Source: a virus. Taken from it: 64,000 nucleotides of DNA. Positions 3,518-54,962 of this stretch are shown here, piece by piece. The first letter of the stretch is position 1, and the number at the start of each line of letters is the position of its first letter. Below the pieces are notes generated by a model, which saw only the letters and a program-made list of their open reading frames with translations, was not told the origin of the DNA and did no database searches. Position numbers and translations under genes: made by a program. Location: positions 106,521 through 170,520 of the IMG/VR virus record IMGVR_UViG_3300028394_000001; one strand, 5' to 3'.

Positions 3518-4282
3518 ATGGCAAGCAATAGAAAAACAGCAATACAAAAACGTGATGATTCAATTGAAGGTGATGAGGTAACACACAGACACCAACCCGT
3601 TTCAAACTCACTAAAAATAAAATTAGACCATTTAAAAACATTTGAAGCACTAACACAAAATCAACAAAAGTTCTTTGACGCATACAAAACAGGTGATTAC
3701 TTTATTGGCCTATTAGGATCACCAGGTGTAGGTAAAACATTCTTAGCATTGTATCGTGCAATCGAAGAAGTATTAAACAAGGATAATCCTTTTACACATA
3801 TTGTAGTTGTTCGTTCCGCTGTACAGGTAAGAGACCAAGGTTTTGTTCCTGGTACATTGGATGAAAAGATGGAGATTTATGAAGTGCCTTACAAAGAAAT
3901 TTGTGAGACACTTTTTGGTCGTTCTGATGCATGGGAAAGATTAAAGGAACAAGGTTACGCTAGATTCATTTCAACTACCGCTATTCGTGGTATCTCTATT
4001 GACAACTCTATCATTATTGTAGATGAATGCCAGTCAATGACATTTCATGAATTGAGTTCGGTTATCTCCCGTGTTGGCCATCGTTCAAAGATTATATTTG
4101 TTGGTGACCTGAAACAGAATGACCTAATTAAGAGTAAACATGATATATCGGGCCTTGCTGAGTTTTTGAATGTTGCAAGACATATGGATGAGTTTACTGA
4201 AATTTTATTTACACCAAACGACATTGTTCGCAGCAGTTTGGTCAAATCATGGATTGTTGCCTGCGATAAATTAGGAATATAA
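3518..4282 (+). CDS. phoH: PhoH-like ATPase
   Basis: Walker A GSPGVGKT, GFVPGTLDEK, RGISIDN, Walker B IIVDECQ, GDLKQND, IVRS. Confidence 0.93.
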   Translation: MASNRKTAIQKRDDSIEGDEVTHRHQPVSNSLKIKLDHLKTFEALTQNQQKFFDAYKTGDYFIGLLGSPGVGKTFLALYRAIEEVLNKDNPFTHIVVVRSAVQVRDQGFVPGTLDEKMEIYEVPYKEICETLFGRSDAWERLKEQGYARFISTTAIRGISIDNSIIIVDECQSMTFHELSSVISRVGHRSKIIFVGDLKQNDLIKSKHDISGLAEFLNVARHMDEFTEILFTPNDIVRSSLVKSWIVACDKLGI

Positions 4283-4878
4283 TGATTGATGATGTGTTAT
4301 GTATTGAAGGTATCTTTGATGATCCGCAAGAAATTATAAATTTGGCGAAGAAACAAAGATACTATTCTTGTGAAGATAATCCTACAGTAAAAAATACAAA
4401 TATCAAGTATAGTGGTGAGAGAACCGACCATTTAGCCAACATATTGAGTGATGGTGAATACTATGAATTAACTAAGAAAATCATAAGTAAAATATTCAAA
4501 AATGTACCATCGTCAAATATAAAGGCTCAAATTATTTGTTTGTTTCACTATCTAACTGAAATGGACATACCGAACAGTTCTTGGATACACAAAGATACAT
4601 CATTGTATTCTGGTGTGATATATTTAAGTGAAGGTTTCAATGATAAATATAATAACCATGGTACCAAAATAATCATAGGCCGTGACGTTTTAAATTACCG
4701 CAATGAATTCAATAAGTTAATCCTATATCGTGGAGACTACTCACATTCGGCTAATTTTGGTTTTGGTCAAACTATAGATAATTCAAGACTAACATTAAAT
4801 TTCTTCATAAATGAAATAATGATTGATATGAAAAATGAAAATAAGGTAAAAGAGAAATACTATGATTACAAAACATGA
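4282..4878 (+). CDS. 2OG-Fe(II) oxygenase-like protein (DUF6445-like)
   Basis: WIHKD (HxD), YSGVIYL, GT, FNKLILYRG..HS, RLTLNFF: the usual DSBH dioxygenase pattern. Confidence 0.7.
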   Translation: MIDDVLCIEGIFDDPQEIINLAKKQRYYSCEDNPTVKNTNIKYSGERTDHLANILSDGEYYELTKKIISKIFKNVPSSNIKAQIICLFHYLTEMDIPNSSWIHKDTSLYSGVIYLSEGFNDKYNNHGTKIIIGRDVLNYRNEFNKLILYRGDYSHSANFGFGQTIDNSRLTLNFFINEIMIDMKNENKVKEKYYDYKT

Positions 4879-5446
4879 ATGGTGGTCAACACCTGTTTGG
4901 GAGATTGAAACAGGATTTGATGAATATTTTAATTTGTGTTTTAGAAATGAATTACTTGATTTGATTTGTGCAAGTGAACATAACAAATATGTCGATATTT
5001 GGACAGTAGATTCCGACTATTGCAGACAATTGAAGAATAAAATATATGAAATGATGGATTTAATTTTACCTGAATATTTTTCAAACTACCACGAATCAAA
5101 ACCCTTTATATCAAATGGATGGGTGAATCAGCAAAAACCAGGACAATCATTTCCACTACACAGTCATGGTGAAAGTGTGGTGGCTTGCGTGTATTATATA
5201 GAAACTTATGAGAATAGTGGTGACCTTCTGATAGTAGATCCAAGGGGTTCTGTTGTTTGGGATTTGAATGTTGAGAATGGTGTAAACTCAGTAAAATATA
5301 AAAGAATTACACCAAAGGCAGGTAAAATGGTCTTATTTCCATCGTATCTATTACATTCAGTTGAAGAAAATAAGTCAGAAAAAACAAGATTTGGCATTGC
5401 TACAAATATACATATTCCCACGAAACACTATATAAATGACAGATAA
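4862..5446 (+). CDS. putative 2OG-Fe(II) oxygenase (TIGR02466-like)
   Basis: W.N...G..FPLHSH, ACVYY, GDLLIVDPRG, G.MVLFPSYLLHSV, R..IA.N. Confidence 0.8.
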   Translation: MITKHEWWSTPVWEIETGFDEYFNLCFRNELLDLICASEHNKYVDIWTVDSDYCRQLKNKIYEMMDLILPEYFSNYHESKPFISNGWVNQQKPGQSFPLHSHGESVVACVYYIETYENSGDLLIVDPRGSVVWDLNVENGVNSVKYKRITPKAGKMVLFPSYLLHSVEENKSEKTRFGIATNIHIPTKHYINDR

Positions 5447-5449
5447 ATA
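5443..5449 (+). promoter_or_regulatory. T4-type late promoter-like motif (ATAAATA)
   Basis: ATAAATA lies 25 nt before the Cys-rich gene; the same motif precedes several structural genes in this window. Confidence 0.5.
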
Positions 5450-5473
5450 GACCATATCTTCGGAGAACAAAAA

Positions 5474-5875
5474 ATGACATTACCAAACACATCTCAAGGA
5501 ATATCTTTTCAAAATATAAGAGATGAAACGGGCCAACCTGCGGGTTTTTCCGCATCTATGCAATGGGTCAAGGACAACAGCAAACTCACAAAAGGCGGCG
5601 CCACTGGTGTTATTAATGACATGGGATCCCTACGCGATAAGGCATATTATAGAGATAATACTTCAGGCAATTGTAGTAATGGTAATTGTACATCTAATTG
5701 TAATTGCGGTAATAAAAATTGCAGTAATTGTATTATTACTGGCACCGTAAATTGTGCAAATTGCGATGCTTCGGCTTTTATCCAACCGAATTGTAATTGC
5801 AATTGTACATATAATTGTACCACTTCGTCAACATCTTTTAACTGTGATTGTTGGATCTGTGCTTGTACTTGGTAA
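5474..5875 (+). CDS. Asn-Cys-repeat Cys-rich protein; putative radical-SAM substrate / precursor
   Basis: GGAG SD. The last 69 aa contain 16 Cys, 13 of them as Asn-Cys, and the protein ends CWICACTW. It lies immediately upstream of the rSAM/SPASM gene. Confidence 0.75.
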   Translation: MTLPNTSQGISFQNIRDETGQPAGFSASMQWVKDNSKLTKGGATGVINDMGSLRDKAYYRDNTSGNCSNGNCTSNCNCGNKNCSNCIITGTVNCANCDASAFIQPNCNCNCTYNCTTSSTSFNCDCWICACTW

Positions 5876-5896
5876 TTTAATAAACTAGGAAAAAAT

Positions 5897-7381
5897 ATGA
5901 TTTTTGAAATTAATGCGGAGCGTAGTGCTTCAGACGTAAAGACTTTTTATTATGATAATGAAAAAAATATACTTTCAGATTCTACTGGATTTGTTTATGA
6001 GTATCCGGAACCACAGATTCCACAACCCGTAACAGGTACAGGCTTGGAGTTATTCCATAAATGTGAAGAGGTTAAACCCTTTGATAAAAATACTCCACTA
6101 AAAAAATCAAAAGATGTTACTGTCATTAAAATCCAATTAGGTTTATCATGCAACTACTCTTGTGATTACTGCTCACAAAGGTTTGTTGAAAGGCCACCAG
6201 AAACTAGTAAAAAGGATATTGAATCTTTCATCTCTAAGTTGGATAATCTAAACATTACAGAAAAAGCTGGACTAAGAGTTGAATTTTGGGGTGGTGAACC
6301 ACTTGTCTATTGGAAAACATTAAAACCTCTCGCTGAAACAATTGCTGAGAAATTTTCTCATTGGAAAAAGAAACCATCTTTTGGCATGGTGACTAATGGA
6401 TCACTATTGACAAGAGAAATATGTTCTTGGTTATATTATATGGGTTTTGGTGTTGGTATTAGTCATGATGGTCCAGGTCAACATGCTCGTGGTCCTGATC
6501 CATTTGAAGATCCAGAAAAAAAGAAAATCATCTTAGAGTTTTATAAAGTAATGCATTCCCAAAATCGTATTAGTTTTAATTCTATGATGAATAGAAAGAA
6601 TACTAGCCGCAAACAAATCCATGATTGGTTTGTTAATTTAACAGGTGATCCTACTGTTCCAATTGGTGAGGGTGGTTTTATTGATGCATATGATGAAGCC
6701 GCTATCAATAGTTCATTAGAAACAAAACAAGAACATTTTGAATACCGAAGAAATGCATTTAATGATATTTATAGTACAGATAATACAGATGAACAAATTA
6801 ATTTTGGTATTATTAATGACAAAACAGACATGTTTGTTCGTGGTGTTTTGAATCACACTGAATCTAAATTTGTTGGTCAAAAATGCGGAATGGACAACGA
6901 AGGAACAATTTCTGTAGACCTCAAAGGTAACATCACAACTTGCCAAAATGTTTCTATAATGGAAACCAGTAAAAACGGTGAGTCACACTTAGGTGGTAAC
7001 TTAGATGATTACGAAAATGTTGAACTGAAATCTGTTACTCATTGGATGAACCGAGCAGGTTGTAAGGATTGTCCTGTGTTGCATTTATGTAAAGGTTCTT
7101 GTATGTACCTTGACGGTAAATTTTGGGATATAACTTGCAATAATGCTTATAGTGATAATGTTGTTTTCTTTGCTTTAGCTCTGGAAAGAATTACAAATGG
7201 TTACATACCAACTAAAATTAAAGGTGATGGATTAGCTTTAGAAAGACAAGACATTTGGGGAACACTATATGAACACAAAGAAGTTGAAAAGAAAAAAATG
7301 ATACCAATTAAAATTATAGCAGAAAAAATTGGTATGTTAAATGATGTTGAAATTTACGGACAATCAAGAGTAGAGGCATAA
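5897..7381 (+). CDS. radical SAM / SPASM-domain enzyme (peptide or protein maturase type)
   Basis: CNYSCDYC (CxxxCxxC), FWGGEP, VTNGSLL, ISHDG. The C-terminal SPASM-type Cys pattern reads KCG...VDLKGNITTC...CKDCPVLHLCKGSC...C. Confidence 0.92.
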   Translation: MIFEINAERSASDVKTFYYDNEKNILSDSTGFVYEYPEPQIPQPVTGTGLELFHKCEEVKPFDKNTPLKKSKDVTVIKIQLGLSCNYSCDYCSQRFVERPPETSKKDIESFISKLDNLNITEKAGLRVEFWGGEPLVYWKTLKPLAETIAEKFSHWKKKPSFGMVTNGSLLTREICSWLYYMGFGVGISHDGPGQHARGPDPFEDPEKKKIILEFYKVMHSQNRISFNSMMNRKNTSRKQIHDWFVNLTGDPTVPIGEGGFIDAYDEAAINSSLETKQEHFEYRRNAFNDIYSTDNTDEQINFGIINDKTDMFVRGVLNHTESKFVGQKCGMDNEGTISVDLKGNITTCQNVSIMETSKNGESHLGGNLDDYENVELKSVTHWMNRAGCKDCPVLHLCKGSCMYLDGKFWDITCNNAYSDNVVFFALALERITNGYIPTKIKGDGLALERQDIWGTLYEHKEVEKKKMIPIKIIAEKIGMLNDVEIYGQSRVEA

Positions 7382-7382
7382 A

Positions 7383-8018
7383 ATGAAAGTTACAATCACA
7401 CAAGAATTGCAGAATTGCATTAACCTTTTAAATTCTATTCCTGCTGTAAAATCAGTTGCAGTATCTGAAGCTTCAGACATTATTAAATCACAAATTAAAA
7501 ATGTAGACTCTTTCGTATTCAGTTTAACTAACGAGATGGGTAATACAATTAAATATATTATTCCTAAAAATGCGATTATTCGTGCAACAACTCATCCAGT
7601 GGAAGATTTTATGGATATTGTTAATGTTATAACACAAAGACTACAATTCTTAGATGAAAATACGAATCCAGATTGGATTGAACCTTGTTATTATAATAAT
7701 ATCGAAACAACTAGAGTTGAAGTGGTCAGAGAAGATATAGCACCAATTGCCGCAAATACTGAATTGCAATTATTAGTGAATAGTTTGGAGGATCTACCTG
7801 GACTATTTAATGTTAATGTTTATTCATTAACATCAGGCAATGCCGATAGTGTATTTTTTACTTGTGATATTATTGAACATCCTCGAGGTGGAAAAATTAA
7901 TTTTGTGGTGCCTTTTAGTACATGCACAAATCTCGAAATGCATTCACAACTGATTGATAATGCAAATGAGTTATTCGAACAAGCAAAAACAGGAAATACA
8001 ACAACTAGTCAATCTTAA
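7383..8018 (+). CDS. hypothetical protein with internal two-fold domain repeat
   Basis: The halves align: ELQNCINLLNSIPAVKSV...DSFVF...IKYIIP versus ELQLLVNSLEDLPGLFNV...DSVFF...INFVVP. Confidence 0.75.
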   Translation: MKVTITQELQNCINLLNSIPAVKSVAVSEASDIIKSQIKNVDSFVFSLTNEMGNTIKYIIPKNAIIRATTHPVEDFMDIVNVITQRLQFLDENTNPDWIEPCYYNNIETTRVEVVREDIAPIAANTELQLLVNSLEDLPGLFNVNVYSLTSGNADSVFFTCDIIEHPRGGKINFVVPFSTCTNLEMHSQLIDNANELFEQAKTGNTTTSQS

Positions 8019-8024
8019 AATATT

Positions 8025-8681
8025 ATGAGAATCGAGAATATTTTTGGTTATAACATAACAAGAATACAATGTACAAATGAATCTCTCTATAGAGATAATG
8101 AAATAACCAAAACGGTTAACAATGTATTTAATTTTCCAAAAGTTCAAAGTAGAGATAGAACACTCAAGGGAGATTCTCATAAAGGTGCAGGTCTAACCAC
8201 GGTTAGTGAATCATACCTTTCTTTAGTAAATCTACCGGGTTTTGGTAATTTAACTGAATGGATTACACAGCAATTTTTATTGGCAAAAGAACCTTTGGGG
8301 CTTGACAATAAAGGAAATATCGTGTATTATAAGAGAAGTTGGGCAAATAGGTTATTTCGTGGCGGCCATGGATTATGCCATAATCACAATAAAGTGGATA
8401 ACTATATTGCGAGTCTTACGGATTATACAAATGAAAATTTTAGACCAGATGCTGTTGGTATTTTTTATCTTGATGTGCCGGAAGCTTCATCAAATTTAGT
8501 CATAGTTAAAGATGGCAAACCTGAGACTTGGATTGATGATTATGTAGAAGAAGATACTCATTGGATACAACCAATAGAAGGAGAGTTATTAATACACTCT
8601 CCTGATGTATATCATGCTGTGAGTGTTCATCACAATAATTTACCTCGTAATGTTTTTGTTTTTGATATTGAATATGTTTAA
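8025..8681 (+). CDS. putative 2OG-Fe(II) oxygenase
   Basis: SWAN...G.CHNH, GIFYL, EGELLIH...YHAV, RNVFVFD. Confidence 0.72.
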   Translation: MRIENIFGYNITRIQCTNESLYRDNEITKTVNNVFNFPKVQSRDRTLKGDSHKGAGLTTVSESYLSLVNLPGFGNLTEWITQQFLLAKEPLGLDNKGNIVYYKRSWANRLFRGGHGLCHNHNKVDNYIASLTDYTNENFRPDAVGIFYLDVPEASSNLVIVKDGKPETWIDDYVEEDTHWIQPIEGELLIHSPDVYHAVSVHHNNLPRNVFVFDIEYV

Positions 8682-9198
8682 AAAGAATCTTTTTGCAACA
8701 CCAATTTGGCAAAGAATATTGCCAATTGAATTGAACAATGGATTATTAGAAGAATCTACTCAATTTGATGGTAATATATTTGATATGAACCTAACATATA
8801 CAAATAAACTAAAAAACATTATTAGAGAATTATACATCAACATCAACTATGAATACATACTTGAAGAACGCACAATTCATGGTAGACTGAATATAATAAA
8901 TTATGGAGAAAATGATACACCACACAGTCACATAGGTAAATCACTTTTAGTTGGTGTCTATTATTTGGATGTTGAGATTGATACGGGTGACCTTTTGTTA
9001 CACGATCCCAGAGGTGGTGTTGTTTGGGATAATTTAGATTTTGAACCGAATGACCCTATAAAAGGAAAAACTTCCAGAACTTATCATAGAATTAAACCTG
9101 TAAACGGATTATTAATTATGTTTCCTGGATATTTGGTACATTCAGTAGAAAACAATATGAATAAAAAACCAAGAAAGTCGATAGTTATTAACATATGA
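8674..9198 (+). CDS. putative 2OG-Fe(II) oxygenase (TIGR02466-like)
   Basis: Likely start ATG 8674 (MFKKNLFATPIW). Motifs PHSH, VGVYY, GDLLLHDPRG, FPGYLVHSV, RKSIVIN. Paralogue of 4862..5446. Confidence 0.8.
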   Translation: MFKKNLFATPIWQRILPIELNNGLLEESTQFDGNIFDMNLTYTNKLKNIIRELYININYEYILEERTIHGRLNIINYGENDTPHSHIGKSLLVGVYYLDVEIDTGDLLLHDPRGGVVWDNLDFEPNDPIKGKTSRTYHRIKPVNGLLIMFPGYLVHSVENNMNKKPRKSIVINI

Positions 9199-10715
9199 AA
9201 TATACAATATTGGGTGGCGGAAGTGCTGGTTGGTTAACTGCATTGTTCATTAGAAAAATTTGTCCAGATGATGAGGTAACTGTCATTGCTAGCTCCGAAA
9301 TTGGAATTTTAGGTGCAGGTGAAGGCACTACACCTCAATTTCCTATGTTTCTTAAAAAGATTGATATATCGGTTCATGATATAATTAAAAACGCTAAAGG
9401 AACATTTAAGAATGGAATTAAATTTACTAATTGGAATGGAGATGGTGAACATTACTATCATAACTTTCAAGATTCATTAGTAAATTTCGAAGATTACAAA
9501 CACATTGATGTTAATCCCTATGCTTTAAATAACATTTCAAACCATGAAAATTTAGATAGCTTGAATTTTACTCCACTCATATCTGAAAAAAATAAAGTAA
9601 AATATATAAAATCTAATGATAAAGAATGTGGATCGGATGCGTTACATTTTGATGCAAATTTATTAGCCAAATATTTTCAAACTGTTGGTTTAGAAAGAAA
9701 TATTAAACTTGTTGATGATGAAGTTATTTCTGTTGATTCAAAGGACAATAAGATTGTTGGATTTAATTTAAAATCAAATAATAAGATAGATACGGATTTT
9801 GTTTTTGATTGTTCTGGTTTTAAAAGATTTCTAATTGGTGGCCACTACAAAGGTAAATGGAATTCTTATAATGACCATTTACCAATGAAACGAGCGATGC
9901 CTTTCTTTGTTCAGAACGACACTAAAGAGATTCCACCATACACAGAAAGTATTGCTATGAAGTATGGTTGGGTTTGGAAGATTCCGGTACAAGGTCGATT
10001 TGGTTGTGGTTATGTGTTTGATTCGGATTTGGTGTCTGATGAAGAAATCAAAAAAGAGTTGGAGGAATATTTTGGACATGAAATTATAAGTCCAAGAACA
10101 TTCACTTTTAATCCAGGTTGTTTTGAAGAGGTGTGTATAGGTAACTGTATTGCTATTGGTTTATCAGCCGCTTTTATTGAACCACTTGAAGCGACAAGCA
10201 TATGGGTTACCATTATGCAATTGACTGAATTTGAAGCGAATAAAAACAAAATCTTAAACGACTCTGGTGATTCTATTGAATCATATAATCAAACTATTAA
10301 GGCAATAAACAGAGACATTTTAAACTTTATACAATTACACTATTTAACTAATCGTAATGATAGTGTTTTTTGGAATACTTTTAAAGTAAAAAACAAGGTA
10401 TTACCGCAAATAGAAGGTCTTAAAGAATTGTGTCAAGATAAAATTCCAGAATCTCACAATTTAAAATACCTTACATTAACAGAAAATATTAACATAGGTT
10501 GTTCGCGTAGTAACCATCGGGGTATTTTTTCCGAAACAAGTTGGCATCAAGTTGGTGCCGGCATAAAATTCTTTAAAGAAGATATTGCAAGAAAAGTTTT
10601 GGATACTGAATATCCAAATTTTAAAAATGAGGTTATATTTCAGGACTTTTTTGAAAAAAATAGTGAACTGTTATATGACCATTACGATTACATAGAGAAA
10701 TTAAAAAATGTTTAA
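9195..10715 (+). CDS. flavin-dependent tryptophan halogenase-like protein (PrnA/RebH family)
   Basis: GGGSAGW FAD motif, GAGEGT, K.GIKF..W, HFDA, DCSGF, GWVWKIP (WxWxIP), AIGLSAAFIEPLEATSI. Confidence 0.9.
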   Translation: MKYTILGGGSAGWLTALFIRKICPDDEVTVIASSEIGILGAGEGTTPQFPMFLKKIDISVHDIIKNAKGTFKNGIKFTNWNGDGEHYYHNFQDSLVNFEDYKHIDVNPYALNNISNHENLDSLNFTPLISEKNKVKYIKSNDKECGSDALHFDANLLAKYFQTVGLERNIKLVDDEVISVDSKDNKIVGFNLKSNNKIDTDFVFDCSGFKRFLIGGHYKGKWNSYNDHLPMKRAMPFFVQNDTKEIPPYTESIAMKYGWVWKIPVQGRFGCGYVFDSDLVSDEEIKKELEEYFGHEIISPRTFTFNPGCFEEVCIGNCIAIGLSAAFIEPLEATSIWVTIMQLTEFEANKNKILNDSGDSIESYNQTIKAINRDILNFIQLHYLTNRNDSVFWNTFKVKNKVLPQIEGLKELCQDKIPESHNLKYLTLTENINIGCSRSNHRGIFSETSWHQVGAGIKFFKEDIARKVLDTEYPNFKNEVIFQDFFEKNSELLYDHYDYIEKLKNV

Positions 10716-43721: not shown

Positions 43722-46700
43722 ATGGCAAATACAGTTAATATTTTAGGCTACGCCAACACATTTGGTGATTGGATCGTTGCAACTAATGCAGGTTCCAATG
43801 AAATCAATTCTATTGGTAAATACGATTGGACCAAAGATTCTGGCACATTGACTTTAAATGGTACAGGTACTGCTTTAACTGTTGCTAATAATGTCATTGT
43901 TGCAGGTCAATTACTGGTTACAGGTACAGCTTCTTCAGCAACTATCGACAATAATTTAACTGTAGGTAAACAAGTATATTTTACAAACACTACACAAAGC
44001 TTGGTTGCAAGTGGTTCTGTTACTGCAAATGGTACAGTTTATGCTAGCAATACAGGAACAAGTTTAGCCGTTGCAAACAATACTACAATTGGAGGTTCTT
44101 TAACGGTAGGTGGTGTAACATTAATCTCAAATACATTAACTGTTACTAAATCAACAGTTCTTCAAAATACTTTGAGTGTTGGTAAAGACACAATAATTAC
44201 AGGTAATTTAAATGCAACATTAGAAACTTATACTAACTTATTAGTATCTAATACGGCTATCAGAGCAGCAGTTTTATCAGTTCTTGGTACCACTTATACT
44301 AACACACTTCAGGCCAATACAAACATTTTAACTGGGGTAATTCAATCTAACACTTCAGTAAATACCGCAACACTATCTGTAACAGGCACATCCTTTACAG
44401 ATAAACTACAATCTAACACCGCAGTTAATACTGCCACAATATCCGTTACTGGTGCAAGTTTTACCAATACTTTACAAGCTAACACCGCCGTAAATACAGC
44501 CACGTCTTCAGTAACAGGCGCAAGTTTTACCAATACTTTACAAGCTAACACCGCTGTAAATACAGCCACACTATCTGTTACCAATATTTCATATACCGAT
44601 AAACTACAAGCTAATGCCGTTGTAAATACTGCGACTTCTTCGGTGACAGGTATTTCTTACACAGATAAGTTACAATCTAATACAGCAGTTAATACTGCCA
44701 CAATATCCGTTACTGGTGCAAGTTTTACTAACACACTTCAATCTAATACGGCAGTTAATACTGCGACTTCTTCAGTGACTGGTATTTCTCATACTGATAG
44801 ATTACAAGCTAATAGTTCAGTTAATACGGCTACAATATCTGTTACTAATATTTCTCACACAGATAGATTACAGGCTAATAGTTCAGTAAATACCGCAACA
44901 CTATCTGTTACCAATATTTCTCATATCGATAAAGTGCAAGCTAATAGCGTTGTAAATACAGCCACATTATCTGTTACCAACATTGCTTATACTGATAAGT
45001 TACAAGCTAATAGTGTTGTAAATACCGCCACACTATCGGTCACAGGTGTTTCGTATACTAACACACTTCAGGCCAATACGAATGTTTTAACTGGAGTAAT
45101 TCAGTCTAATACTGCTGTTAATACGGCTACAATATCTGTTACTAATATTTCTCATACAGATAGATTACAGGCTAATAGTTCAGTTAATACTGCTATTTTA
45201 TCTGTTACCAATATTTCTCATATCGATAAAGTACAAGCTAATAGCGTTGTTAATACAGCCACATTATCGGTTACCAATATTTCGTTTACAGATAAGTTAC
45301 AGGCTAATAGCGTTGTAAATACAGCCACATTATCTGTTACTAACATTGCTTATACCGATAAGTTACAAGCTAATAGCGTTGTAAATACAGCCACATTATC
45401 CGTGGTTGGCAATACTTGGACTAATAGAGTTCAAGCTAATGCTTCCGTAAATACAGCCACATTATCCGTGGTTGGCAATACTTGGACTAATGCATTACAA
45501 GCTAACGCGACAGTTAATACGGTTACAATGTCTGTGGTTGGCACTAGTTACACAGGATATTTGCAATCTAATAATACTGTAAACACTACTACAATTTCAG
45601 CAACAGGAAATACATATACTAGTTATCTTATTGCAAATAATGATATTTCTGTATCTAAACTGTATGTTACGAGTACACTTCTTTCGGCAACAAATGCTGT
45701 AGGTGCATTCCAATCTCTAACAACATCGGCCGGTTTGACTGTTGGTGGTACGTTTACAATTAACGGAACAACAGTTTATACAACAAATAATTTTGTAATA
45801 AACGCAAACACTTATACACCAATCACAAGTTATTTTAGTGTTAATAGGGGTACTGCAAATAATCAACCCACTGGTATTCCAAATGCAAATGCATCCATTC
45901 GTTGGAACGAATCAAACAAATATTGGGATATTTTAGATTCAAATAATGGCATTTACTATTCGCAAATTATGACTGCGAATATGATTTCTGATAGTGCAAC
46001 ATCTACAAGTATTTCAACTGTTCCAACAAGTAAAATTTCAACCGCAATTTATGCTCATGCGAACGCGGCCTTTGAGCAAGCTAATGTAGCAATACCAGCT
46101 AGCTCGTATGCTAACTCAGCTTACCTGCAAGCTAATTCAGCCTATGTGTCACAGAATACAACCGGTCAATATGCTAACTCGGCCTATGGTGTATCCAATT
46201 CAGCTAGTTCGTATGCTAATTCAGCTTACCGTGGCGCAAATTCAGCCAGTTCGTATGCTAATTCAGCATTTATTACTGCTAACAATGCTTTAGCTAATGT
46301 TGGTTCCATGGTTACGTCTAATAGCAGTACCATGTATACTTTTGCCAACAATTCGGCATCCACTTCGAATGTCACAGGTTCCGTTGTTATTGCGGGCGGC
46401 CTTGGTGTAGGTGGTAGTGTATACACTGGCAATGTTGTGATTAGAGGTTCTGGTAATGGTATTACCTTTGTTGATGGTTCGGTTCAATTCACAGCAGGTT
46501 CACCTGCAGCATCTGTATATGCTAATGCCGGTTTTGCACAGGCTAATACAGGTACTCTAAATGCAGCGTCAGCCAGTTCATACGCTAATGGTGCATTCTT
46601 AGTAGCTAATACAGGTACTTTAAATGCTGCAGCAGGAAGTTCATATGCCAACTCAGCTTATGGTGTAGCTAATAATGCATTGGCTAATACTGGCACATCA

Positions 46701-48893
46701 GTAACAGCTAACAGCTTAACAGTATACACTTTCTCAAATGCAACAGCATCTTCTTCAAACACAACTGGTGCTGTTGTTATTGCAGGCGGTCTTGGTGTAA
46801 GTGGCAGTGTGTATTCTGGTAATGTTGTTATTAGAGGTACTGGCAATGGTATCACCTTTACTGATGGTTCAGTTCAATTTACGGCAGGTTCACCTGCAGC
46901 ATCCGTATATGCTAATGCCGCTTTTGCTGCAGCTAATACAGGTACTTTAAATGCAGCATCAGCCAGTTCATATGCTAATTCAGGTTACCGTGATGCAAAT
47001 TCAGCCAGTACCTATGCCAACTCTGCATTTGCTGGAGCTAATACAAGTACTCTAAATGCGGCTTCTGCTAGTTCTTATGCTAATTCAGGATACCGTGATG
47101 CCAATTCAGCTAGTTCATATGCTAACTCTGCTTTTGCTGGAGCTAATACAAGTACTCTAAATGCGGCTTCTGCTAGTTCTTATGCTAACTCTGCATTTGG
47201 TATTGCTAATACATCCATTTTAAATGCTGCATCTGCTAGTTCCTATGCTAATGGTGCATTTGCTAGAGCTAATACAACTGGCCTTTACGCTAATGCTGCG
47301 TATGTACAAGCTAATACAGGTACATTAAATGCTGCATCTGCTAGTTCCTATGCTAACTCTGCATATGGTAAAGCAAATACTGCACTAACCACTGCGGGTG
47401 GTCAAATCATAGGTGATTTGGGTATTACTGGTAGTTTAACTGTTAATGGTCCATTAACTTACATAAATGTTGCAACATACCAAACAGTCGATTCTCTAAT
47501 TGAATTAGCTGCAAACAATTTAGGAGATGTGGTTGATATTGGTTTTTATGGCCAATATGTAAACTCAGGTACAAAATATACAGGACTAGTAAGAACAGCT
47601 TCGAGTGATTGGACTCTATTCCAAGGAATAACAACGAATCCAACAAGTAATAGCATTGGTGCTATATCGTTTGCAAATTATGGAACATTAAACACAAATA
47701 TTGCTGCAGGACAAATAACCAGTTCACAGGCAATTCCGGTTGCTTCCGGTGGTACTGGCGTCAAAACATCTACAGGATCAGGTTCAGTTGTATTGAGTGC
47801 TTCACCTTCATTAACATCACCTTCATTTACAGGCAACATTGGTGGTGATATTGGATTTAATGGCGTAGGGGTATCTCAGTGGAATCTTACTCTTGGTAAA
47901 ACAGTTACAGGTACGAACACGGGTGGTGGTATATTGGCGCAAGGAACCGCCGGTGGTGGTATGACTGGTTGGTATACAAGTTTCTATAGTAATATAAACA
48001 CCGCCGCCGGTTTACTTATGGATAACGCTTATCATTTCATAGCCGGAAGTGTAGCTGCAGGTGGTGGAAGTGTTGTATCTAATACTACGGGTTTATATAT
48101 TTCCGATTTGTCCACAGGAACAGTATCTAATCACGGTATTAAAGGACTTGTTTCAGCTGGCGCAGGTAAATATAATCTATATCTCTCAGGAACCGCAGAC
48201 AATTATTTACAAGGCAACGTAGCAATTGGTGGAACAACACCTGCGTCTGCTCCTAAATTGTCTTTATATGGCAGTATGCGATTCTTGACTAATCAAGCGC
48301 CATCTGCAACTTATACAGGTATTGGTTCTGTTAGAACTGATGAAGTTTCTATATCTACATCAGGCAACGAAAGATTTAGAATTACCTCTACCGGCGCAGT
48401 ATATTTTGGAACAAATGGAAATGGTAGTGGAAGTGTTAATCCTGATAATATATTCCAAAGTGATTTAACGAACACGGTCCAGAATGCAACTTCAGGTATA
48501 TTTCATCGAATAAACGGAGCAGATAGGCTCGTTACAGCTAATGCAGGTGTAACTGCTACAGGTGTCCTAACAGCTACAGGTAACGTCGTTGCATTCTCTG
48601 ACATAAAGCTTAAAACAAATATAACAAATATTGATAATGCATTGCAAAAAACTTTACAATTGCGTGGTGTTTATTACAACAAAAAAGACGATATTGAAAC
48701 GAAAAAGGTCGGTGTAATTGCACAAGAAGTTTTAGAAGTATTGCCTGAAGTTGTAATGTCACATGTGGATCAGACAACGAAAGAAGAAACACTAACTGTT
48801 GACTATGGTAATATAGTAGGATTGTTAATCGAGGCTATTAAAGAATTGAACGAAGAAGTTCAATACTTAAAATCAAAAATACCAAACCAATAA
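43722..48893 (+). CDS. long tail fibre with C-terminal intramolecular chaperone (peptidase S74)
   Basis: NTF.DW...TN N-terminus; 22-aa and 14-aa repeats; C-terminal SDIKLKTNI..I.NAL.....LRGVYY...GVIAQEV..VLPEVV...VDYG.IVGLLIEAIKEL. Confidence 0.87.
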   Translation: MANTVNILGYANTFGDWIVATNAGSNEINSIGKYDWTKDSGTLTLNGTGTALTVANNVIVAGQLLVTGTASSATIDNNLTVGKQVYFTNTTQSLVASGSVTANGTVYASNTGTSLAVANNTTIGGSLTVGGVTLISNTLTVTKSTVLQNTLSVGKDTIITGNLNATLETYTNLLVSNTAIRAAVLSVLGTTYTNTLQANTNILTGVIQSNTSVNTATLSVTGTSFTDKLQSNTAVNTATISVTGASFTNTLQANTAVNTATSSVTGASFTNTLQANTAVNTATLSVTNISYTDKLQANAVVNTATSSVTGISYTDKLQSNTAVNTATISVTGASFTNTLQSNTAVNTATSSVTGISHTDRLQANSSVNTATISVTNISHTDRLQANSSVNTATLSVTNISHIDKVQANSVVNTATLSVTNIAYTDKLQANSVVNTATLSVTGVSYTNTLQANTNVLTGVIQSNTAVNTATISVTNISHTDRLQANSSVNTAILSVTNISHIDKVQANSVVNTATLSVTNISFTDKLQANSVVNTATLSVTNIAYTDKLQANSVVNTATLSVVGNTWTNRVQANASVNTATLSVVGNTWTNALQANATVNTVTMSVVGTSYTGYLQSNNTVNTTTISATGNTYTSYLIANNDISVSKLYVTSTLLSATNAVGAFQSLTTSAGLTVGGTFTINGTTVYTTNNFVINANTYTPITSYFSVNRGTANNQPTGIPNANASIRWNESNKYWDILDSNNGIYYSQIMTANMISDSATSTSISTVPTSKISTAIYAHANAAFEQANVAIPASSYANSAYLQANSAYVSQNTTGQYANSAYGVSNSASSYANSAYRGANSASSYANSAFITANNALANVGSMVTSNSSTMYTFANNSASTSNVTGSVVIAGGLGVGGSVYTGNVVIRGSGNGITFVDGSVQFTAGSPAASVYANAGFAQANTGTLNAASASSYANGAFLVANTGTLNAAAGSSYANSAYGVANNALANTGTSVTANSLTVYTFSNATASSSNTTGAVVIAGGLGVSGSVYSGNVVIRGTGNGITFTDGSVQFTAGSPAASVYANAAFAAANTGTLNAASASSYANSGYRDANSASTYANSAFAGANTSTLNAASASSYANSGYRDANSASSYANSAFAGANTSTLNAASASSYANSAFGIANTSILNAASASSYANGAFARANTTGLYANAAYVQANTGTLNAASASSYANSAYGKANTALTTAGGQIIGDLGITGSLTVNGPLTYINVATYQTVDSLIELAANNLGDVVDIGFYGQYVNSGTKYTGLVRTASSDWTLFQGITTNPTSNSIGAISFANYGTLNTNIAAGQITSSQAIPVASGGTGVKTSTGSGSVVLSASPSLTSPSFTGNIGGDIGFNGVGVSQWNLTLGKTVTGTNTGGGILAQGTAGGGMTGWYTSFYSNINTAAGLLMDNAYHFIAGSVAAGGGSVVSNTTGLYISDLSTGTVSNHGIKGLVSAGAGKYNLYLSGTADNYLQGNVAIGGTTPASAPKLSLYGSMRFLTNQAPSATYTGIGSVRTDEVSISTSGNERFRITSTGAVYFGTNGNGSGSVNPDNIFQSDLTNTVQNATSGIFHRINGADRLVTANAGVTATGVLTATGNVVAFSDIKLKTNITNIDNALQKTLQLRGVYYNKKDDIETKKVGVIAQEVLEVLPEVVMSHVDQTTKEETLTVDYGNIVGLLIEAIKELNEEVQYLKSKIPNQ
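44230..45620 (+). repeat. about 20 tandem 66-bp (22-aa) coding repeats
   Basis: Unit approximately ISYTDKLQANSVVNTATLSVTN, with occasional extra 11-aa half units. Confidence 0.9.
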
Positions 48894-48933: not shown

Positions 48934-49302
48934 ATGGCCGCAGGATATTCAGACCAATACATGGAACAAGGGTCATCCTTTAATGCCCGTCTGGCGTTAA
49001 CAGATGATTCTGGAGTTCCATATGACTTAACAACCTTCACTATAAATTCCAGAGCAAAGAAATCTTACACAACAGCTAATGTTGCTTTCACTTTTACTGC
49101 ACAAATCAGTACGGAAGAAGAAGGTGTAATATTCCTCTCGTTGCCTGCAGCAAATACTGCAAATGTACCTTATGGAAAATACGTCTACGATGTAAATATT
49201 AAAGATTCAGTAACTAATTTGGTAACTCGCGTATTGGAAGGACAAATATATGTTTCTCCTGGTGTGACCGGAGTAATTAATTCCAATGGTCCTAACGCAT
49301 AA
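48934..49302 (+). CDS. conserved virion protein (fibre attachment / BppU-like)
   Basis: EQG..F...L...D..G...DLT, G.I.LSL.A..TA....G.YVYDV.I......VTRVLEG.I.VSPGVT. Confidence 0.7.
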   Translation: MAAGYSDQYMEQGSSFNARLALTDDSGVPYDLTTFTINSRAKKSYTTANVAFTFTAQISTEEEGVIFLSLPAANTANVPYGKYVYDVNIKDSVTNLVTRVLEGQIYVSPGVTGVINSNGPNA

Positions 49303-52300
49303 TGGCAACTATAGTAAATCCAGTAAATCAGATTAGTGTACGAGTTGGTCCAGGTTCTCCTGCGGCCGTGCAATCAATTACGCAATTCACAGGACCAACT
49401 CAAACGTCCAATATTGCAAATCTGCAAATTCAAATTACCACTAATGAAGTGGTTGCCAGAGTTTCTTCAAATACGGTGGGGATGTTCGCTAATGCGGCCT
49501 TCAGATTAGCAAATACAATTGCGAATGGAGGTGTTGATGTATTTGCAAGAGAAAATTCAAACAATGCATTATCCGCAGTAATAACAACTGGATCATACGC
49601 CAATTCAGCTTTTGCTTTAGCTAATTCATTGATAGTATCTGTAACAGATACAGAAGCTAGAGCGAACGCAAATCTTGCTTTTGCTCGAGCAAATGCTTCA
49701 TACAATCTAGCTAATATTGTATTTGCACAAGCTAATACTGCATACACACAGGCTAATGCTGCGTTTGCACAAGCTAACAATGTAATACCAGCAGCTTCTT
49801 ATGCCAACGGTGCTTTCGCTAGGTCCAATACAGCATTCAATTTAGCTGGTACTAAATTGAGTAAAAATGGCGATACAATGCTTGGTGATTTGGTTATAAC
49901 TGGTAATATTATTCCATCAACAGCCAATACTTATTTCTTGGGATCTAAATTAAAACCATTCAAATCATTGTTTGTTGGTCCAGGGTCTGTTGACATTGAC
50001 GGTATTATTTTGAGTAATTCAGGTGGTAGTTTGATTATTACCTCAAACACAGGTGATTCTATTGACCTTACTTCGAGTGCCAATGGTTCCTTTTTACAAG
50101 CTAACGCAGCTTATGATTCACAAAATACAACTGGAGTATATGCGAATGCCGCGTATCTACATGCTAATTCGGCATATGTATCGCAGAATTCAACCGGTCA
50201 ATATGCTAACTCAGCATACATTCACGCCAATTCTTCTTATGTGTCTCAGAATTCAACGGGTCAATACACTAACTCAGCTTATATTCATGCCAATTCAGCA
50301 TATGTGTCACAGAATTCATCCGGTAATTATGCAAACTCAGCTTATTTTCAGGCCAACACAGCTTATGAATCACAGAATACAACAGGTCAATATGCAAATA
50401 CAGCATTTACTAAGGCCAATTCGGCATATGTATCACAGAATACAACAGGTGTATATGCAAATACAGCACATATTCACGCCAATGCATCTTACATAGCACA
50501 GAATACAACAGGCATATATGCAAACACAGCATTTACTCAGGCCAATGCGGCTTTCGCAGCAGCTAATGGAGGTGCTAGTGTAATTGTTGCAGGATCATAT
50601 GCAAACTCAGCTTATCTGCAAGCGAATGCATCTTTTATTCGTGCAAATAATTCACTGAATGTACAAACAGGTGGTACAATTACAGGTGACATAACAGTTA
50701 CTGGAAATTTGTTCATCAATGGCACAACAACAACAGTTAACACAACGGTTGTGCAAACAACAGATTCATTAATTAAATTAGCAAACAATAATGTCCTTAG
50801 TGATACCTTGGACATAGGTTTTTATGGTAGTTCATTGACAGCTGGATCAGCTGTACCAACTTATCATGGATTAGTTCGCCAAGCTGGTTCCAATAATTTC
50901 TTGTTGTTTAGGGATATAACACAGGACCCATCATCGAATATACTTTCTCCTGGATCAGCAACTGTTTCAAATGTTGGAACACTTATAGCAAATGTTGCCG
51001 GTTATACAATAACTAGTTATGGTACAGATTTATTAAAGTTTTCAAGTTCATCTTATATTCAAGCTAATGCAGCTTTTGATGCAGCTAATTCTGGTAGTGG
51101 TGTAGTTGCTGCTGGATCATATGCCAATTCAGCATACGGTGCCGCAAATTCAGCCAGTTCTTATGCCAATTCAGCATATACACATGCCAATTCGGCTTAT
51201 GTATCACAGAATACAACAGGTCAATATGCCAATTCATCATATACACATGCCAATTCAGCGTACGGTGCGGCTAACTTAGTTGGTTCATATGCCAATTCAG
51301 CTTACATACAAGCCAATTCAGCATACGACACCGCGAACTCAGCAGGTTCATATGCAAACTCAGGTTACATACAAGCTAATTCAGCATACGGCGCAGCTAA
51401 CTTAGTTGGTTCATATGCCAATTCAGCTTACGGTACTGCAAATTCAGCAGGTTCATATGCTAACTCAGCTTACATACAAGCCAATTCGGCCTATGTATCA
51501 CAGAATTCAACCGGTCAATATGCTAACTCAGCATACGGTACTGCAAATTCAGCCAGTTCATATGCCAATGGTTCTTTCATAACAGCAAACACATCTAGTT
51601 TATATGCAAACTCAGCATATGTTCACGCCAATTCATCATATGATAGTGCCAATTCAGCCAGTTCCTATGCTAATGGTGCATTTACTGGATCTAATACGGC
51701 AAGTTCCTATGCTAATGGTGCTTTTGCTGGTGCTAATACAGGTATTTTAAATGCTGCTTCAGCTAGTTCCTATGCTAATTCAGGTTACCGTGATGCTAAT
51801 TCAGCTAGTTCTTATGCAAATTCGGCATATTTTCACACTAATTCAGCTTTTATTATAGCAAATTCAGCCAGTTCATATGCCAATGGTGCATTCACTGTAG
51901 CCAATACAGCCAGTTCTTATTCTAATAGTGCTTTTGTTCAAGCAAATGCAGCGTTCGAAATGGCTAACACATCGGCTAATACTACGGCGTCCGTAGCCTC
52001 CGTTGCTTCATATGCTAATGGTGCATTTGGTGCTGCGAATAATGCTAGTTCTTATGCCAATGGTGCTTTCGTATTAGCATTTTCAGCTTTATCTGTTGGC
52101 AATTCAGCGAGTATTTATGCTAATGCTGCTTTCGATGCAACAAATACATCCAGTTCCAATGCAGCATCAGCTAGCTTTTATTCTAATACTGCTTACATAC
52201 AAGCCAATGCAGCATATAGCACAGCCAACTCAGCTAGTTCTTATGCCAATGGTGCATTTGCTGGTGCTAATACGGCCAGTTCTTATGCTAACTCCGCTAG

Positions 52301-54962
52301 TTACTATGCAAACTCCGCTTATGTACATGCCAATGCGGCTTTCGCAGCAGCTAATGCAGGTGTTGGTGTAATTATTGCAGGATCATATGCTAACTCAGCT
52401 TACATACAAGCCAATGCATCTTATGGTGCAGTTAACTCAGTAAGTTCATATGCTAATAGTGCTTTTGCTGGTGCTAATGTATCCAGTTTGTATGCAAACT
52501 CAGCCTACATTAATTCAAACACCAAAGTAAGTAAATCCGGTGATACAATGATTGGATCATTGATACTTTCTGGTGTGGGTAGTGATGTAAAATTTACTGG
52601 TGGTGCTGCATTAGTAGGAAATGAAGCTAACAATTTAATAAAAATTACAGCAAATGCCAATAATGATATAACTGGTGTTGCTGCTCAGAGCGGTGATGGA
52701 GGCCTTGCACAAGTATATTCCAATGGTCGTGTAGAGATAATTACAGATACGGGTGCGGCAGGTGCTCTTTGGACTTTTGCTAAAGATGGTTCATTAACAT
52801 TACCGGGAATAATAGGACAAGTTGGACGTAGTGGTTATACTAACGGATTAGATTTATATAATGGTGAAGCTGGTGTTGGGTATGTACGATTAAACAATGC
52901 CGACCAATCTTTTGTATGGGTTGATCCATCTGGCGCACATATTCAAACTACCGGCGGTACATGGAACTTTGATGCAAATGGCAATATAACATTCCCAGAT
53001 AGTACAATACAAGCTACCGGTTTTAGAGGTTATGGTATTGATAATGTTGCACGTTATTCAGCAAACTCATCAGGTTCATATGCTAATGGTGCTTTTGCTG
53101 CATCGAATACGGCTAGTTCATATGCCAATTCATCGTATGTTCAAGCTAATGCAGCATATGGTACTGCAAATTCAGCAAGTTCATATGCTAATGGTGCTTT
53201 TGCTGCATCGAATACGGCTAGTTCCAATGCATCTTCAGCAAGTTCATATGCTAATGGTGCATTTGAAGCTGCAAATACTGGTTCTGGTGTAGCATCAGCT
53301 GGTTCTTTTGCCAACTCAGCTTATGGTGTAGCTAATTCATCCAGTTCATATGCTAATGGTGCTTATGTTACTGCCAATTCATCTAGTTCATATGCAAATG
53401 GTGCTTTTGCACAATCTAATTTATCTTTCAATTCGGCTAATAGTGCTTCTAATTATGCTAATGCATCTTTCATTCGGGCAAATAATTCACTAAATGTACA
53501 ATCAGGTGGTACAATTACAGGTGATGTGACTGTAACGGGTAATCTTTTCATTAATGGAACAACTACCTCCGTAAATACAACGGTCATACAAACAACAGAT
53601 TCGTTAATCAAGTTAGCTAATAACAACTTATACAGTGATACTTTAGATATAGGGTTCTATGGTACCTCATTAACAACTGGTTCTGGTGTACCAACTTATC
53701 ATGGTCTTGTGAGGCAAGCTGGTTCCAATAATTTCTTGTTGTTTAGGGATATAACACAGGACCCATCATCGAATGTAATGCCGGCAGGATCGGCAAGTGT
53801 ATCCAATGTTGGCACACTTATAGCAAATGTTGCCGGTTATAAGATAACCAGTTATGGTACCGACTTGTTACAATTTGCTAATGCAGCCTTTATGCAAGCT
53901 AATGCTGCGTTTGATTCATCCAATTCTGGTACCGGTGTATTATCAACTGGATCTTATGCCAATTCAGCTTTTCTACACGCTAATGCATCTTATATCACTG
54001 CCAATTCAGCCAGTTCATATGCTAATGGTGCTTTTGCTGGTGCCAATTCAGCCAGTTCGTATGCCAATGGTGCTTTCACTGGAGCTAATACAGCCAGTTC
54101 CAATGCTGCATCATCAAGTTCGTATGCTAATAGTGCTTTTGGTATTGCAAACTCATCTAGTTCATATGCCAACTCAGCATTCTTAACAGCTAATACGGCC
54201 AGTTTGAATTCGGATTCAGCAAGTTCATATGCCAATGGTGCATTCTTAGCAGCTAATACGGCCAGTTCCAACGCAGCATCAGCAAGTTCATATGCTAACT
54301 CTGCATTTGCTGGAGCTAATACAGCCAGTTCCAATGCTGCTTCAGCAAGTTCGTATGCTAACTCATCCTATGGTTCCGCAAATTCAGCAAGTTCATATGC
54401 CAACTCTGCATTTGCTGGAGCTAATACAGCCAGTTCCAATGCTGCTTCAGCAAGTTCATATGCTAACTCTGCCTACATTCAAGCTAATGCATCTTATGGT
54501 GTATCCAATTCAGCCAGTTCATATGCTAATGGTGCATTTTCTGTAGCAAATACAGCAATACCAGCAGGTTCATATGCTAATGGTGCTTTTACTGGAGCTA
54601 ATACGGCAAGTTCTAATGCTGCTTCAGCCAGTTCTTATGCTAACTCTGGATTTGTAGCAGCTAATACGGCCAGTTCCAACGCAGCATCAGCCAGTTCTTA
54701 TGCTAATTCTGCATTTTTAATAGCTAATACATCTAGTTCCAATGCATCATCAGTAAGTTCTTATGCTAACTCTGCATTTGCTGGAGCTAATACGGCCAGT
54801 TCTAATGCTGCTTCAGCCAGTTCATATGCTAATGGCGCATTCTTAACAGCCAATACAGGTACTTTAAATGCTGCTTCATCTAGTTCATACGCTAATGGTG
54901 CATTTTTGCGAGCTAACACTGCAATATCCGATGCATTAGCATATTCTATAGCTTTAGGTTAA
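49302..54962 (+). CDS. repetitive tail fibre protein (SYAN coiled-coil repeats)
   Basis: 1886 aa. Dozens of 14/21-aa ASSYAN(S/G)A(F/Y)xxAN repeats, two copies of a ~140-aa beta domain, KxGDTM.G.L motifs, ends ALAYSIALG. Confidence 0.8.
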   Translation: MATIVNPVNQISVRVGPGSPAAVQSITQFTGPTQTSNIANLQIQITTNEVVARVSSNTVGMFANAAFRLANTIANGGVDVFARENSNNALSAVITTGSYANSAFALANSLIVSVTDTEARANANLAFARANASYNLANIVFAQANTAYTQANAAFAQANNVIPAASYANGAFARSNTAFNLAGTKLSKNGDTMLGDLVITGNIIPSTANTYFLGSKLKPFKSLFVGPGSVDIDGIILSNSGGSLIITSNTGDSIDLTSSANGSFLQANAAYDSQNTTGVYANAAYLHANSAYVSQNSTGQYANSAYIHANSSYVSQNSTGQYTNSAYIHANSAYVSQNSSGNYANSAYFQANTAYESQNTTGQYANTAFTKANSAYVSQNTTGVYANTAHIHANASYIAQNTTGIYANTAFTQANAAFAAANGGASVIVAGSYANSAYLQANASFIRANNSLNVQTGGTITGDITVTGNLFINGTTTTVNTTVVQTTDSLIKLANNNVLSDTLDIGFYGSSLTAGSAVPTYHGLVRQAGSNNFLLFRDITQDPSSNILSPGSATVSNVGTLIANVAGYTITSYGTDLLKFSSSSYIQANAAFDAANSGSGVVAAGSYANSAYGAANSASSYANSAYTHANSAYVSQNTTGQYANSSYTHANSAYGAANLVGSYANSAYIQANSAYDTANSAGSYANSGYIQANSAYGAANLVGSYANSAYGTANSAGSYANSAYIQANSAYVSQNSTGQYANSAYGTANSASSYANGSFITANTSSLYANSAYVHANSSYDSANSASSYANGAFTGSNTASSYANGAFAGANTGILNAASASSYANSGYRDANSASSYANSAYFHTNSAFIIANSASSYANGAFTVANTASSYSNSAFVQANAAFEMANTSANTTASVASVASYANGAFGAANNASSYANGAFVLAFSALSVGNSASIYANAAFDATNTSSSNAASASFYSNTAYIQANAAYSTANSASSYANGAFAGANTASSYANSASYYANSAYVHANAAFAAANAGVGVIIAGSYANSAYIQANASYGAVNSVSSYANSAFAGANVSSLYANSAYINSNTKVSKSGDTMIGSLILSGVGSDVKFTGGAALVGNEANNLIKITANANNDITGVAAQSGDGGLAQVYSNGRVEIITDTGAAGALWTFAKDGSLTLPGIIGQVGRSGYTNGLDLYNGEAGVGYVRLNNADQSFVWVDPSGAHIQTTGGTWNFDANGNITFPDSTIQATGFRGYGIDNVARYSANSSGSYANGAFAASNTASSYANSSYVQANAAYGTANSASSYANGAFAASNTASSNASSASSYANGAFEAANTGSGVASAGSFANSAYGVANSSSSYANGAYVTANSSSSYANGAFAQSNLSFNSANSASNYANASFIRANNSLNVQSGGTITGDVTVTGNLFINGTTTSVNTTVIQTTDSLIKLANNNLYSDTLDIGFYGTSLTTGSGVPTYHGLVRQAGSNNFLLFRDITQDPSSNVMPAGSASVSNVGTLIANVAGYKITSYGTDLLQFANAAFMQANAAFDSSNSGTGVLSTGSYANSAFLHANASYITANSASSYANGAFAGANSASSYANGAFTGANTASSNAASSSSYANSAFGIANSSSSYANSAFLTANTASLNSDSASSYANGAFLAANTASSNAASASSYANSAFAGANTASSNAASASSYANSSYGSANSASSYANSAFAGANTASSNAASASSYANSAYIQANASYGVSNSASSYANGAFSVANTAIPAGSYANGAFTGANTASSNAASASSYANSGFVAANTASSNAASASSYANSAFLIANTSSSNASSVSSYANSAFAGANTASSNAASASSYANGAFLTANTGTLNAASSSSYANGAFLRANTAISDALAYSIALG

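Follow-up and report, generated by a model that had tools for sequence, protein, structure and literature searches.

The stretch analyzed here (the window, 64,000 nucleotides; positions 106,521–170,520 of IMG/VR virus record IMGVR_UViG_3300028394_000001) covers the final 64 kb of a T4-like virus record, complete at 170.5 kb and with repeats at its termini, and has 36.6% GC content. Open reading frame (ORF) 5474..5875 on the plus strand encodes a Cys-rich protein of 133 aa. The gene for a SPASM-domain radical S-adenosylmethionine (SAM) enzyme (5897..7381, plus strand), the putative maturase of the Asn/Cys-rich (NC-rich) domain of this protein, follows after a gap of 21 nt, so the two genes are probably co-transcribed. 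Sequence comparisons suggest that the Cys-rich protein is a late-made tail-fiber tip component with an enzymatically cross-linked C-terminal end.

The Cys-rich gene and the radical SAM enzyme

The window protein contains 16 Cys, every one within residues 67–131. A first-pass annotation, made from the sequence alone, had pointed to a patterned core, and its description is accurate: Asn precedes 13 of the 16 Cys, and the motifs NCxxxNC, NCNC, NCxNC, and NCNCNC are each found. Residues 1–62 (5474..5659, +) form an N-terminal domain (N-domain), a putative tail-fiber docking module. Residues 63–133, with 16 Cys and 15 Asn (5660..5875 with the stop codon, +), form the NC-rich domain, the putative radical SAM substrate and distal tip.

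A late-promoter-like motif, ATAAATA (5443..5449, +), lies inside GATAAATA upstream of the gene. It fits the late-promoter consensus NATAAATA reported for T4-like cyanophages (PMC2984593), and its last base is 25 nt before the ATG, a promoter distance as in T4-type late genes. The same heptamer had been noticed ahead of structural genes of the window, and these copies were located at 22870 for the gp48-like gene (22904), 28912 for the gp25-like gene (28923), 35081 for the gp8-like gene (35092), and 48896 and 54966 for two small fiber-associated genes (48934 and 54993). The gp25 and gp8 copies end only about 5 nt from the ATG and are too near to serve as promoters of their own genes. The heptamer is not over-represented across the window (23 copies, 33.6 expected), and 8 of its 17 plus-strand copies are intergenic. 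Its weight rests on position, not copy number. Among 60 distinct upstream regions from relatives of the Cys-rich gene, 30 have ATAAATA 27–42 nt ahead of the ATG, and one more has it only at −47. Relatives with the radical SAM gene upstream also keep the motif, placed inside the 3′ end of that gene. In non-T4-like relatives the Cys-rich gene is coupled to a fiber gene instead of the motif. This conserved promoter-like motif suggests late expression of the Cys-rich gene.

The enzyme scores 32.4 against Pfam Radical_SAM (PF04055; cutoff 29.5) and 32.2 against TIGR04085 SPASM (cutoff 27). The CxxxCxxC triad C85/C89/C92 is invariant in 14 sequences, as are seven SPASM Cys (C330, C349, C389-x2-C392-x5-C398-x3-C402, and C414), which include the motif CX2CX5CX3C. 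The closest named families in NCBIfam are the peptide or protein maturases geopeptide, PapB, QhpD, and CcpM. Membership in the named thioether maturase families (PapB, QhpD, CcpM, SCIFF, and geopeptide) was not found, every score being far under its NCBIfam cutoff: 83.8 bits against 400 for geopeptide, the best, 77.8 against 340 for PapB, and 73 against 453 for QhpD.

In 80 of 80 loci of Cys-rich proteins, a radical SAM homolog is encoded next to the protein or nearby, on its strand and in either order. The linkage was also searched in reverse. Relatives of the enzyme are encoded in 366 viral contigs, from which 77 new loci were kept; 72 of the 77 have an NC-rich ORF and 71 have an N-domain. 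One locus is a clear exception (L101, 5001–6449), which has replication-type neighbors and, within 5 kb, neither an NC-rich nor an N-domain ORF. The remaining misses are cut contigs or a frameshift. The radical SAM partner of the NC-rich domain is near-obligate.

Relatives of the Cys-rich protein in uncultured viruses were found by word-indexed search (119 matches) and lie on 132 viral contigs. In 181 distinct relatives, Asn stands before 71% of Cys, against 22% expected from domain composition, and the two residues are about equally abundant (17.7 Cys and 16.5 Asn per domain). Relative to Cys, Asn is enriched at −1 (70%) and −3 (36%). The dominant Cys spacing is CxC, with 1228 of about 3000 nearest-neighbor gaps. 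The NC-rich core is the best-conserved part of the family; variation is seen in some loops and in the final ~7 residues.

Four architectures were distinguished. The short form, like the window protein, is represented by 178 sequences and stops where the other forms go on. A Peptidase_S74 chaperone is added in 30 sequences (junction ...CFW/SDDRLK) and a Hint domain in at least 10 (e.g., L041, junction ...CDC/CFPADALV; Hom_end_hint E 1.6e-6). An extension of ~170 aa that ends in a hydrophobic helix is found in about 40 sequences (junction ...NCNC/SKIICAKL). All three additions begin in relatives exactly at the end point of the window protein. The S74 part matches the chaperone of S16 gp37 (PDB 6F45_A, E 1.6e-7) and also the MYRF chaperone. 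S74 and Hint are self-cleaving, so the mature product of those forms should end where the window protein ends. The window protein itself has no Peptidase_S74 in Pfam, and its C-terminus falls at the cleavage point of the S74 forms. Judging from the self-cleaving modules, the NC-rich domain should therefore stand at the mature C-terminal end in S74 and Hint forms.

The extension of the long forms (L005 2328–3227, L024 3719–4618, L070 10001–10984) reads ...NCNC/SKIICAKLYEFG...RGYIRWA...PWSEHMAY... with the hydrophobic helix at its end. In loci with long forms, the radical SAM gene is upstream. The extension has no match in Pfam or NCBIfam, and an Atlas search gave no lead.

Tail-fiber contexts and the N-terminal domain

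In four T4-like loci (L008, L032, L044, and L052) the gene order is a gp8-like gene, a giant phrog_358 protein, a fiber of ~363 aa, the Cys-rich gene, the radical SAM gene, and companions. In all four, the genes of the ~363-aa fiber and the Cys-rich protein overlap at the fiber's stop. Loci of three further phage backgrounds (L022/L061, L041, and L073) likewise have the Cys-rich gene abutting or overlapping a fiber stop. All five upstream fibers tested (in L008, L022, L041, L061, and L073) end in S74. The window has equivalent gp8-like and phrog_358 genes, followed by a 73-aa ORF and a 1,723-aa tail fiber with a C-terminal Peptidase_S74 (43722..48893, +; S74 E 7.6e-16; tail-fiber PHROGs). This fiber is our best guess for the docking partner because it has the same gene order as in the L008-type loci. 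It resembles the fibers encoded ahead of the Cys-rich gene in relatives only within the S74 region, and the sequence gave no confirmation of the pairing. Two giant fibers downstream (49302–54962 and 55321–59241) contain many 'SYANSAY(I/V)QAN'-like repeats, with weak Alanine_zipper matches, and each is preceded by a small gene with ATAAATA.

Homologs of the enzyme (44–46% identity) are found within tail modules of two cultured phages. In Achromobacter phage JWF, fiber gp028 contains ...NCNCDCNCNCS followed by Hint, and the radical SAM gene (46% identity) is two genes downstream. In Ralstonia phage RSP15, a side tail fiber near the enzyme ends in ...NCQCGN. Among bacterial enzyme loci, 51 of 80 have an ORF of 190–620 aa that ends in (NC)n, e.g., ...RYNFNCNCNCACDCCC, or in (NC)n and Hint, located 1–3 kb upstream of the enzyme. 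These loci are mostly from Limnohabitans, Polynucleobacter, Burkholderiaceae, and Comamonadaceae, and several have prophage-like tail and lysis neighbors. Seven of 10 bacterial (NC)n ORFs tested match tail-fiber PHROGs, two at E < 1e-80. Since (NC)n fibers occur beside the enzyme in both phages and bacteria, the NC repeat can be read as a tip element at the C-terminus of full-length fibers, one that travels with the enzyme clade. In all, the system extends over 366 viral contigs and 87 bacterial loci, its N-domain is shared by 429 protein clusters, and it is present in the cultured phages JWF and RSP15.

The 429 clusters were collected with a profile of residues 1–62, which matches nearly always at the extreme N-terminus of a protein. 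A word-based search for longer proteins with residues 1–60 returned none; the exhaustive profile search did find relatives. Many N-domain proteins lack the Cys-rich domain and have as distal part Gly_rich_2, PA14/GLEYA, fibrinogen_C, or domains without assignment. The N-domain of the Cys-rich family (residues 1–60) aligns with that of the non-Cys relatives at 99.1% in hhalign (E 4.8e-19). Two large Cys-free proteins, P0147 (1,154 aa) and P0215 (823 aa), have 9 and 4 internal matches to the N-domain profile, respectively, and may hold a related repeat.

In cultured phages, genes of non-Cys relatives begin at a tail-fiber gene's stop codon or overlap it. They follow tail fibers in Vibrio phage PhiImVa-1 (Schitoviridae), Rhizobium phage Pasto (Autographiviridae), Erwinia and Serratia jumbo phages, and Kyanoviridae, a 'long tail fiber protein p37' in Yersinia phage fHe-Yen9-04, and a 1,068-aa baseplate/fiber protein in Pelagibacter phage HTVC008M. 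No radical SAM gene is annotated near non-Cys N-domain genes in three regions inspected. The N-domain thus occurs in fiber context without the enzyme, and likely acts as a fiber-associated adaptor with exchangeable distal domains. The radical SAM enzyme appears to be associated with the NC-rich domain and not with the adaptor N-domain.

The N-terminus had been likened to a pattern MxLPxSGxISxxxIxxExG...SxxxxxGKS of tail-tip docking segments with gp38-like N-termini. The pattern agrees almost exactly with the consensus of the non-Cys relatives (MTLPASGxISxSDVNxELG...SMSxLYGKS), and the segment proved to be a real and widespread domain that heads small proteins encoded after tail-fiber genes. 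The part of the claim that concerned homology to gp38 did not hold up. Pfam GP38 was unmatched at E ≤ 0.1 by the window protein and by 10 N-domain relatives. A search of PDB sequences with the N-domain profile gave chance matches only and did not recover the gp38 chain of 6F45. Foldseek and wide VIA-align searches (the latter run twice) against PDB gave no fold match for the N-domain, with nothing at Z ≥ 2. A fold search of BFVD returned one family member and chance-level rows, including weak ones for 'Gp38 domain' proteins (E about 2.5). In the full-length AlphaFold2 (AF2) model, the N-domain has a predicted local distance difference test score (pLDDT) of about 85; folded by itself, it reached only 61.

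One relative, P0220 (337 aa), has an N-domain split by a Gly-rich insert (GGxGG-type) of ~230 aa and followed by the NC-rich domain, and so combines a gp38-like polyglycine module and an NC module within one protein.

Other genes of the cassette

The third cassette gene (7383..8018, +) encodes a companion protein of 211 aa, a tandem pair of a ~100-aa domain. In 32 loci, all of short or S74 forms, the radical SAM gene is followed by a companion with one or two copies of this domain, as in L008 (11863–12482) and L044 (11863–12507). No locus whose Cys-rich protein has the membrane-anchored extension contains this companion. The companion domain and the ~170-aa extension are mutually exclusive, as if substituting for each other. 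The companion has no Pfam match, and a profile search of PDB sequences gave chance matches only.

A 2-oxoglutarate (2OG)-Fe(II) oxygenase of PF13759 (4862..5446, +) lies upstream of the Cys-rich gene and is a frequent but facultative neighbor. A same-strand PF13759-like gene is found no more than 2.5 kb away in 41 of 79 and 47 of 77 viral loci, and in 25 of 80 bacterial loci. In two Limnohabitans loci with prophage-like neighbors (L184, 4362–4919; L205, 4258–4815), such a gene is directly upstream of the radical SAM gene, and another lies beside the pair in L022 (5935–6546). The oxygenase may have an accessory role, perhaps in hydroxylating Asn, or may be there simply because such genes are common in T4-like phages. 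The whole stretch 4282–10715 was considered as a single island for a ribosomally made peptide that is modified post-translationally (RiPP) and rejected, as the Trp halogenase and most 2OG oxygenases join the pair only in T4-like loci. They are absent from other phage types and most bacterial loci, and are not conserved partners.

Interpretation of the NC-rich protein and its enzyme

We propose that the product of ORF 5474–5875 is made late and serves as an accessory or tip protein of a tail fiber. The first ~60 residues would dock on a fiber, and the last ~70 residues would form an NC-repeat distal domain at the mature C-terminus. The co-transcribed SPASM enzyme (5897–7381) would act on this domain, and the 211-aa companion may help in some way. 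The likeliest chemistry would be Cys-to-Asn thioether cross-links that covalently staple the tip. The thioethers would replace disulfides, which cannot form in the reducing cytoplasm; such a substitute is plausible because Cys and Asn counts are near equal and the particle is assembled in the cytoplasm. Enzymes with related activities have been described: NxxcB forms a Cys-Asn beta-thioether (PMC9389541), and CrpC puts thioethers on a Cys-rich protein (PMC13692751). We infer the virion location, docking partner, cross-linking chemistry, and oligomeric state, and put the probability of a late-made tip protein, docked by its N-domain and cross-linked by the SPASM enzyme, probably through Cys-Asn thioethers, at about 0.6.

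Several points weigh against this proposal. Its support is comparative, from domain homologies, gene linkage, fiber contexts, and a conserved motif, and not experimental. The N-domain has no match to any solved structure, and the NC-rich domain was not modeled by AF2 (pLDDT < 50). In the window the gene stands in an island with auxiliary-type genes, ~38 kb from the fiber genes. The type of reaction can only be guessed, as the enzyme is far below the cutoff of every named maturase. Receptor-binding surfaces are not usually conserved as strongly as the NC core is, and the membrane-anchor-like helix in about 40 relatives is odd for a virion part unless cleaved. In cultured phages, no protein with both an N-domain and an NC-rich domain was matched; tblastn of the window protein against 50,697 cultured phage records gave a single chance-level match, and the low-complexity filter of BLAST may mask the NC-rich part and hide such a protein.

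The closest parallel among tail proteins is gp38 of T2 and S16 on the gp37 tip (PDB 6F45). It is a small protein encoded right after a fiber gene with a cleaved C-terminal S74-type chaperone, and has an N-terminal attachment part followed by a distal domain of odd composition, a layout proposed here for the window protein as well. Its gene position is matched by the relatives in L008, L022, L041, L061, and L073, whereas the window gene is ~38 kb from the S74 fiber. The window protein differs from gp38 in that no sequence or fold similarity was found, in its Asn/Cys-rich and not polyglycine distal domain, and in its pairing with a dedicated radical SAM enzyme. The S74 fusions suggest a trimer for its family, whereas gp38 is reported as a monomer. 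Among fibers and spikes with S74 (endosialidase, T5 pb1, and S16 gp37), the parallel lies with the 30 relatives that carry S74 right after the NC-rich domain with an SDxxLK cleavage-site motif; the window protein lacks S74 and ends where those forms would be cleaved.

For the enzyme, the nearest counterparts are CrpA/CrpC and QhpC/QhpD (PMC13692751), in which a SPASM enzyme gene likewise adjoins a gene for a Cys-rich, protein-sized substrate and not a short peptide. The present family scores far below the cutoffs (QhpD, 73 against 453 bits), its substrate would be a phage tail-fiber element, and the likely acceptor in the predicted chemistry is Asn, not Asp or Glu. In the streptococcal RiPP system NxxcA/NxxcB (PMC9389541), a radical SAM enzyme joins Cys sulfur to the C-beta of Asn, in keeping with the Asn enriched at −1 and −3 of Cys here. 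However, NxxcA has a single cross-link in a short peptide under quorum regulation, whereas the protein here is of structural type with about 16 Cys in a 70-aa domain, and no NxxcB model is among the reported NCBIfam matches of the enzyme.

Of the alternatives to a cross-linked tip, a metal-binding tip survives best and is unlikely. The CxC motifs of three chains would face the fiber axis and hold metal ions or an iron-sulfur cluster, and the enzyme would do a non-thioether job. HxH motifs in the T4 gp37 needle bind iron. The dominance of CxC spacing, the trimer implied by the S74 fusions, and the placement of (NC)n at the extreme C-terminus of fibers, where three chains meet, are consistent with such a tip. 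Metal binding alone does not explain the near-obligate radical SAM partner, however, and Asn at −1 is as conserved as Cys, which suits an acceptor residue better than a metal ligand.

A classical RiPP, in which the N-terminal 60 residues are a leader that the radical SAM enzyme recognizes and the modified core is set free to act outside the virion as a toxin, a signal, or an effector directed at the host, is less likely still. The 'leader' is homologous to the N-termini of post-fiber proteins that have no radical SAM neighbor in the three regions inspected, and neither a conserved protease nor an exporter or transporter is found beside the pair in 80 and 77 loci. Added modules are C-terminal and of tail-fiber type (S74 and Hint), and the same enzyme clade is found beside full-length fibers that end in (NC)n. 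These observations outweigh the tight adjacency of precursor and enzyme, the similarity of the SPASM enzyme to RiPP maturases, the conserved N-terminus with its variable C-terminal tail, and the membrane-anchored extensions of some relatives, all of which a released RiPP would account for. An assembly chaperone like T4 gp38 or lambda Tfa, which helps the fiber fold and is not kept in the particle, is improbable to a similar degree: genes directly after tail-fiber genes often encode such chaperones and some Gly-rich relatives match PHROGs named 'tail fiber assembly', but the lectin-like PA14/GLEYA and fibrinogen_C parts of non-Cys relatives suit binding better, (NC)n is an integral C-terminus of full-length fibers, and, as the forms fused to S74 or Hint imply, the product being matured is the NC-rich part itself.

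If the cross-linked tip is the correct reading, the same enzyme clade would also serve full-length fibers ending in (NC)n, and the window protein would be a separate-adaptor version of an 'NC tip plus radical SAM' module. We tentatively extend this to a class of phage and prophage fibers, a generalization that falls somewhat short of even odds. Such fibers would have an (Asn-Cys)n tip, carried on the fiber itself or on a clip-on adaptor, that is cross-linked by a SPASM enzyme before assembly. This would be the first RiPP-type radical chemistry that builds a virion part, and a redox-independent substitute for disulfides. Literature searches returned no earlier description of the pairing of NC protein and radical SAM enzyme as a tail-fiber module.

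If true, phages modify their host-recognition apparatus post-translationally with a radical SAM enzyme, and this layer of fiber modification would be invisible to sequence-based predictions of receptor binding. RiPP enzymology would be joined with virion assembly, and a function would be provided for a phage radical SAM family that carries the annotation 'anaerobic sulfatase maturase' or is listed among 'auxiliary/antibiotic' genes. With JWF and RSP15 in culture, the idea is directly testable.

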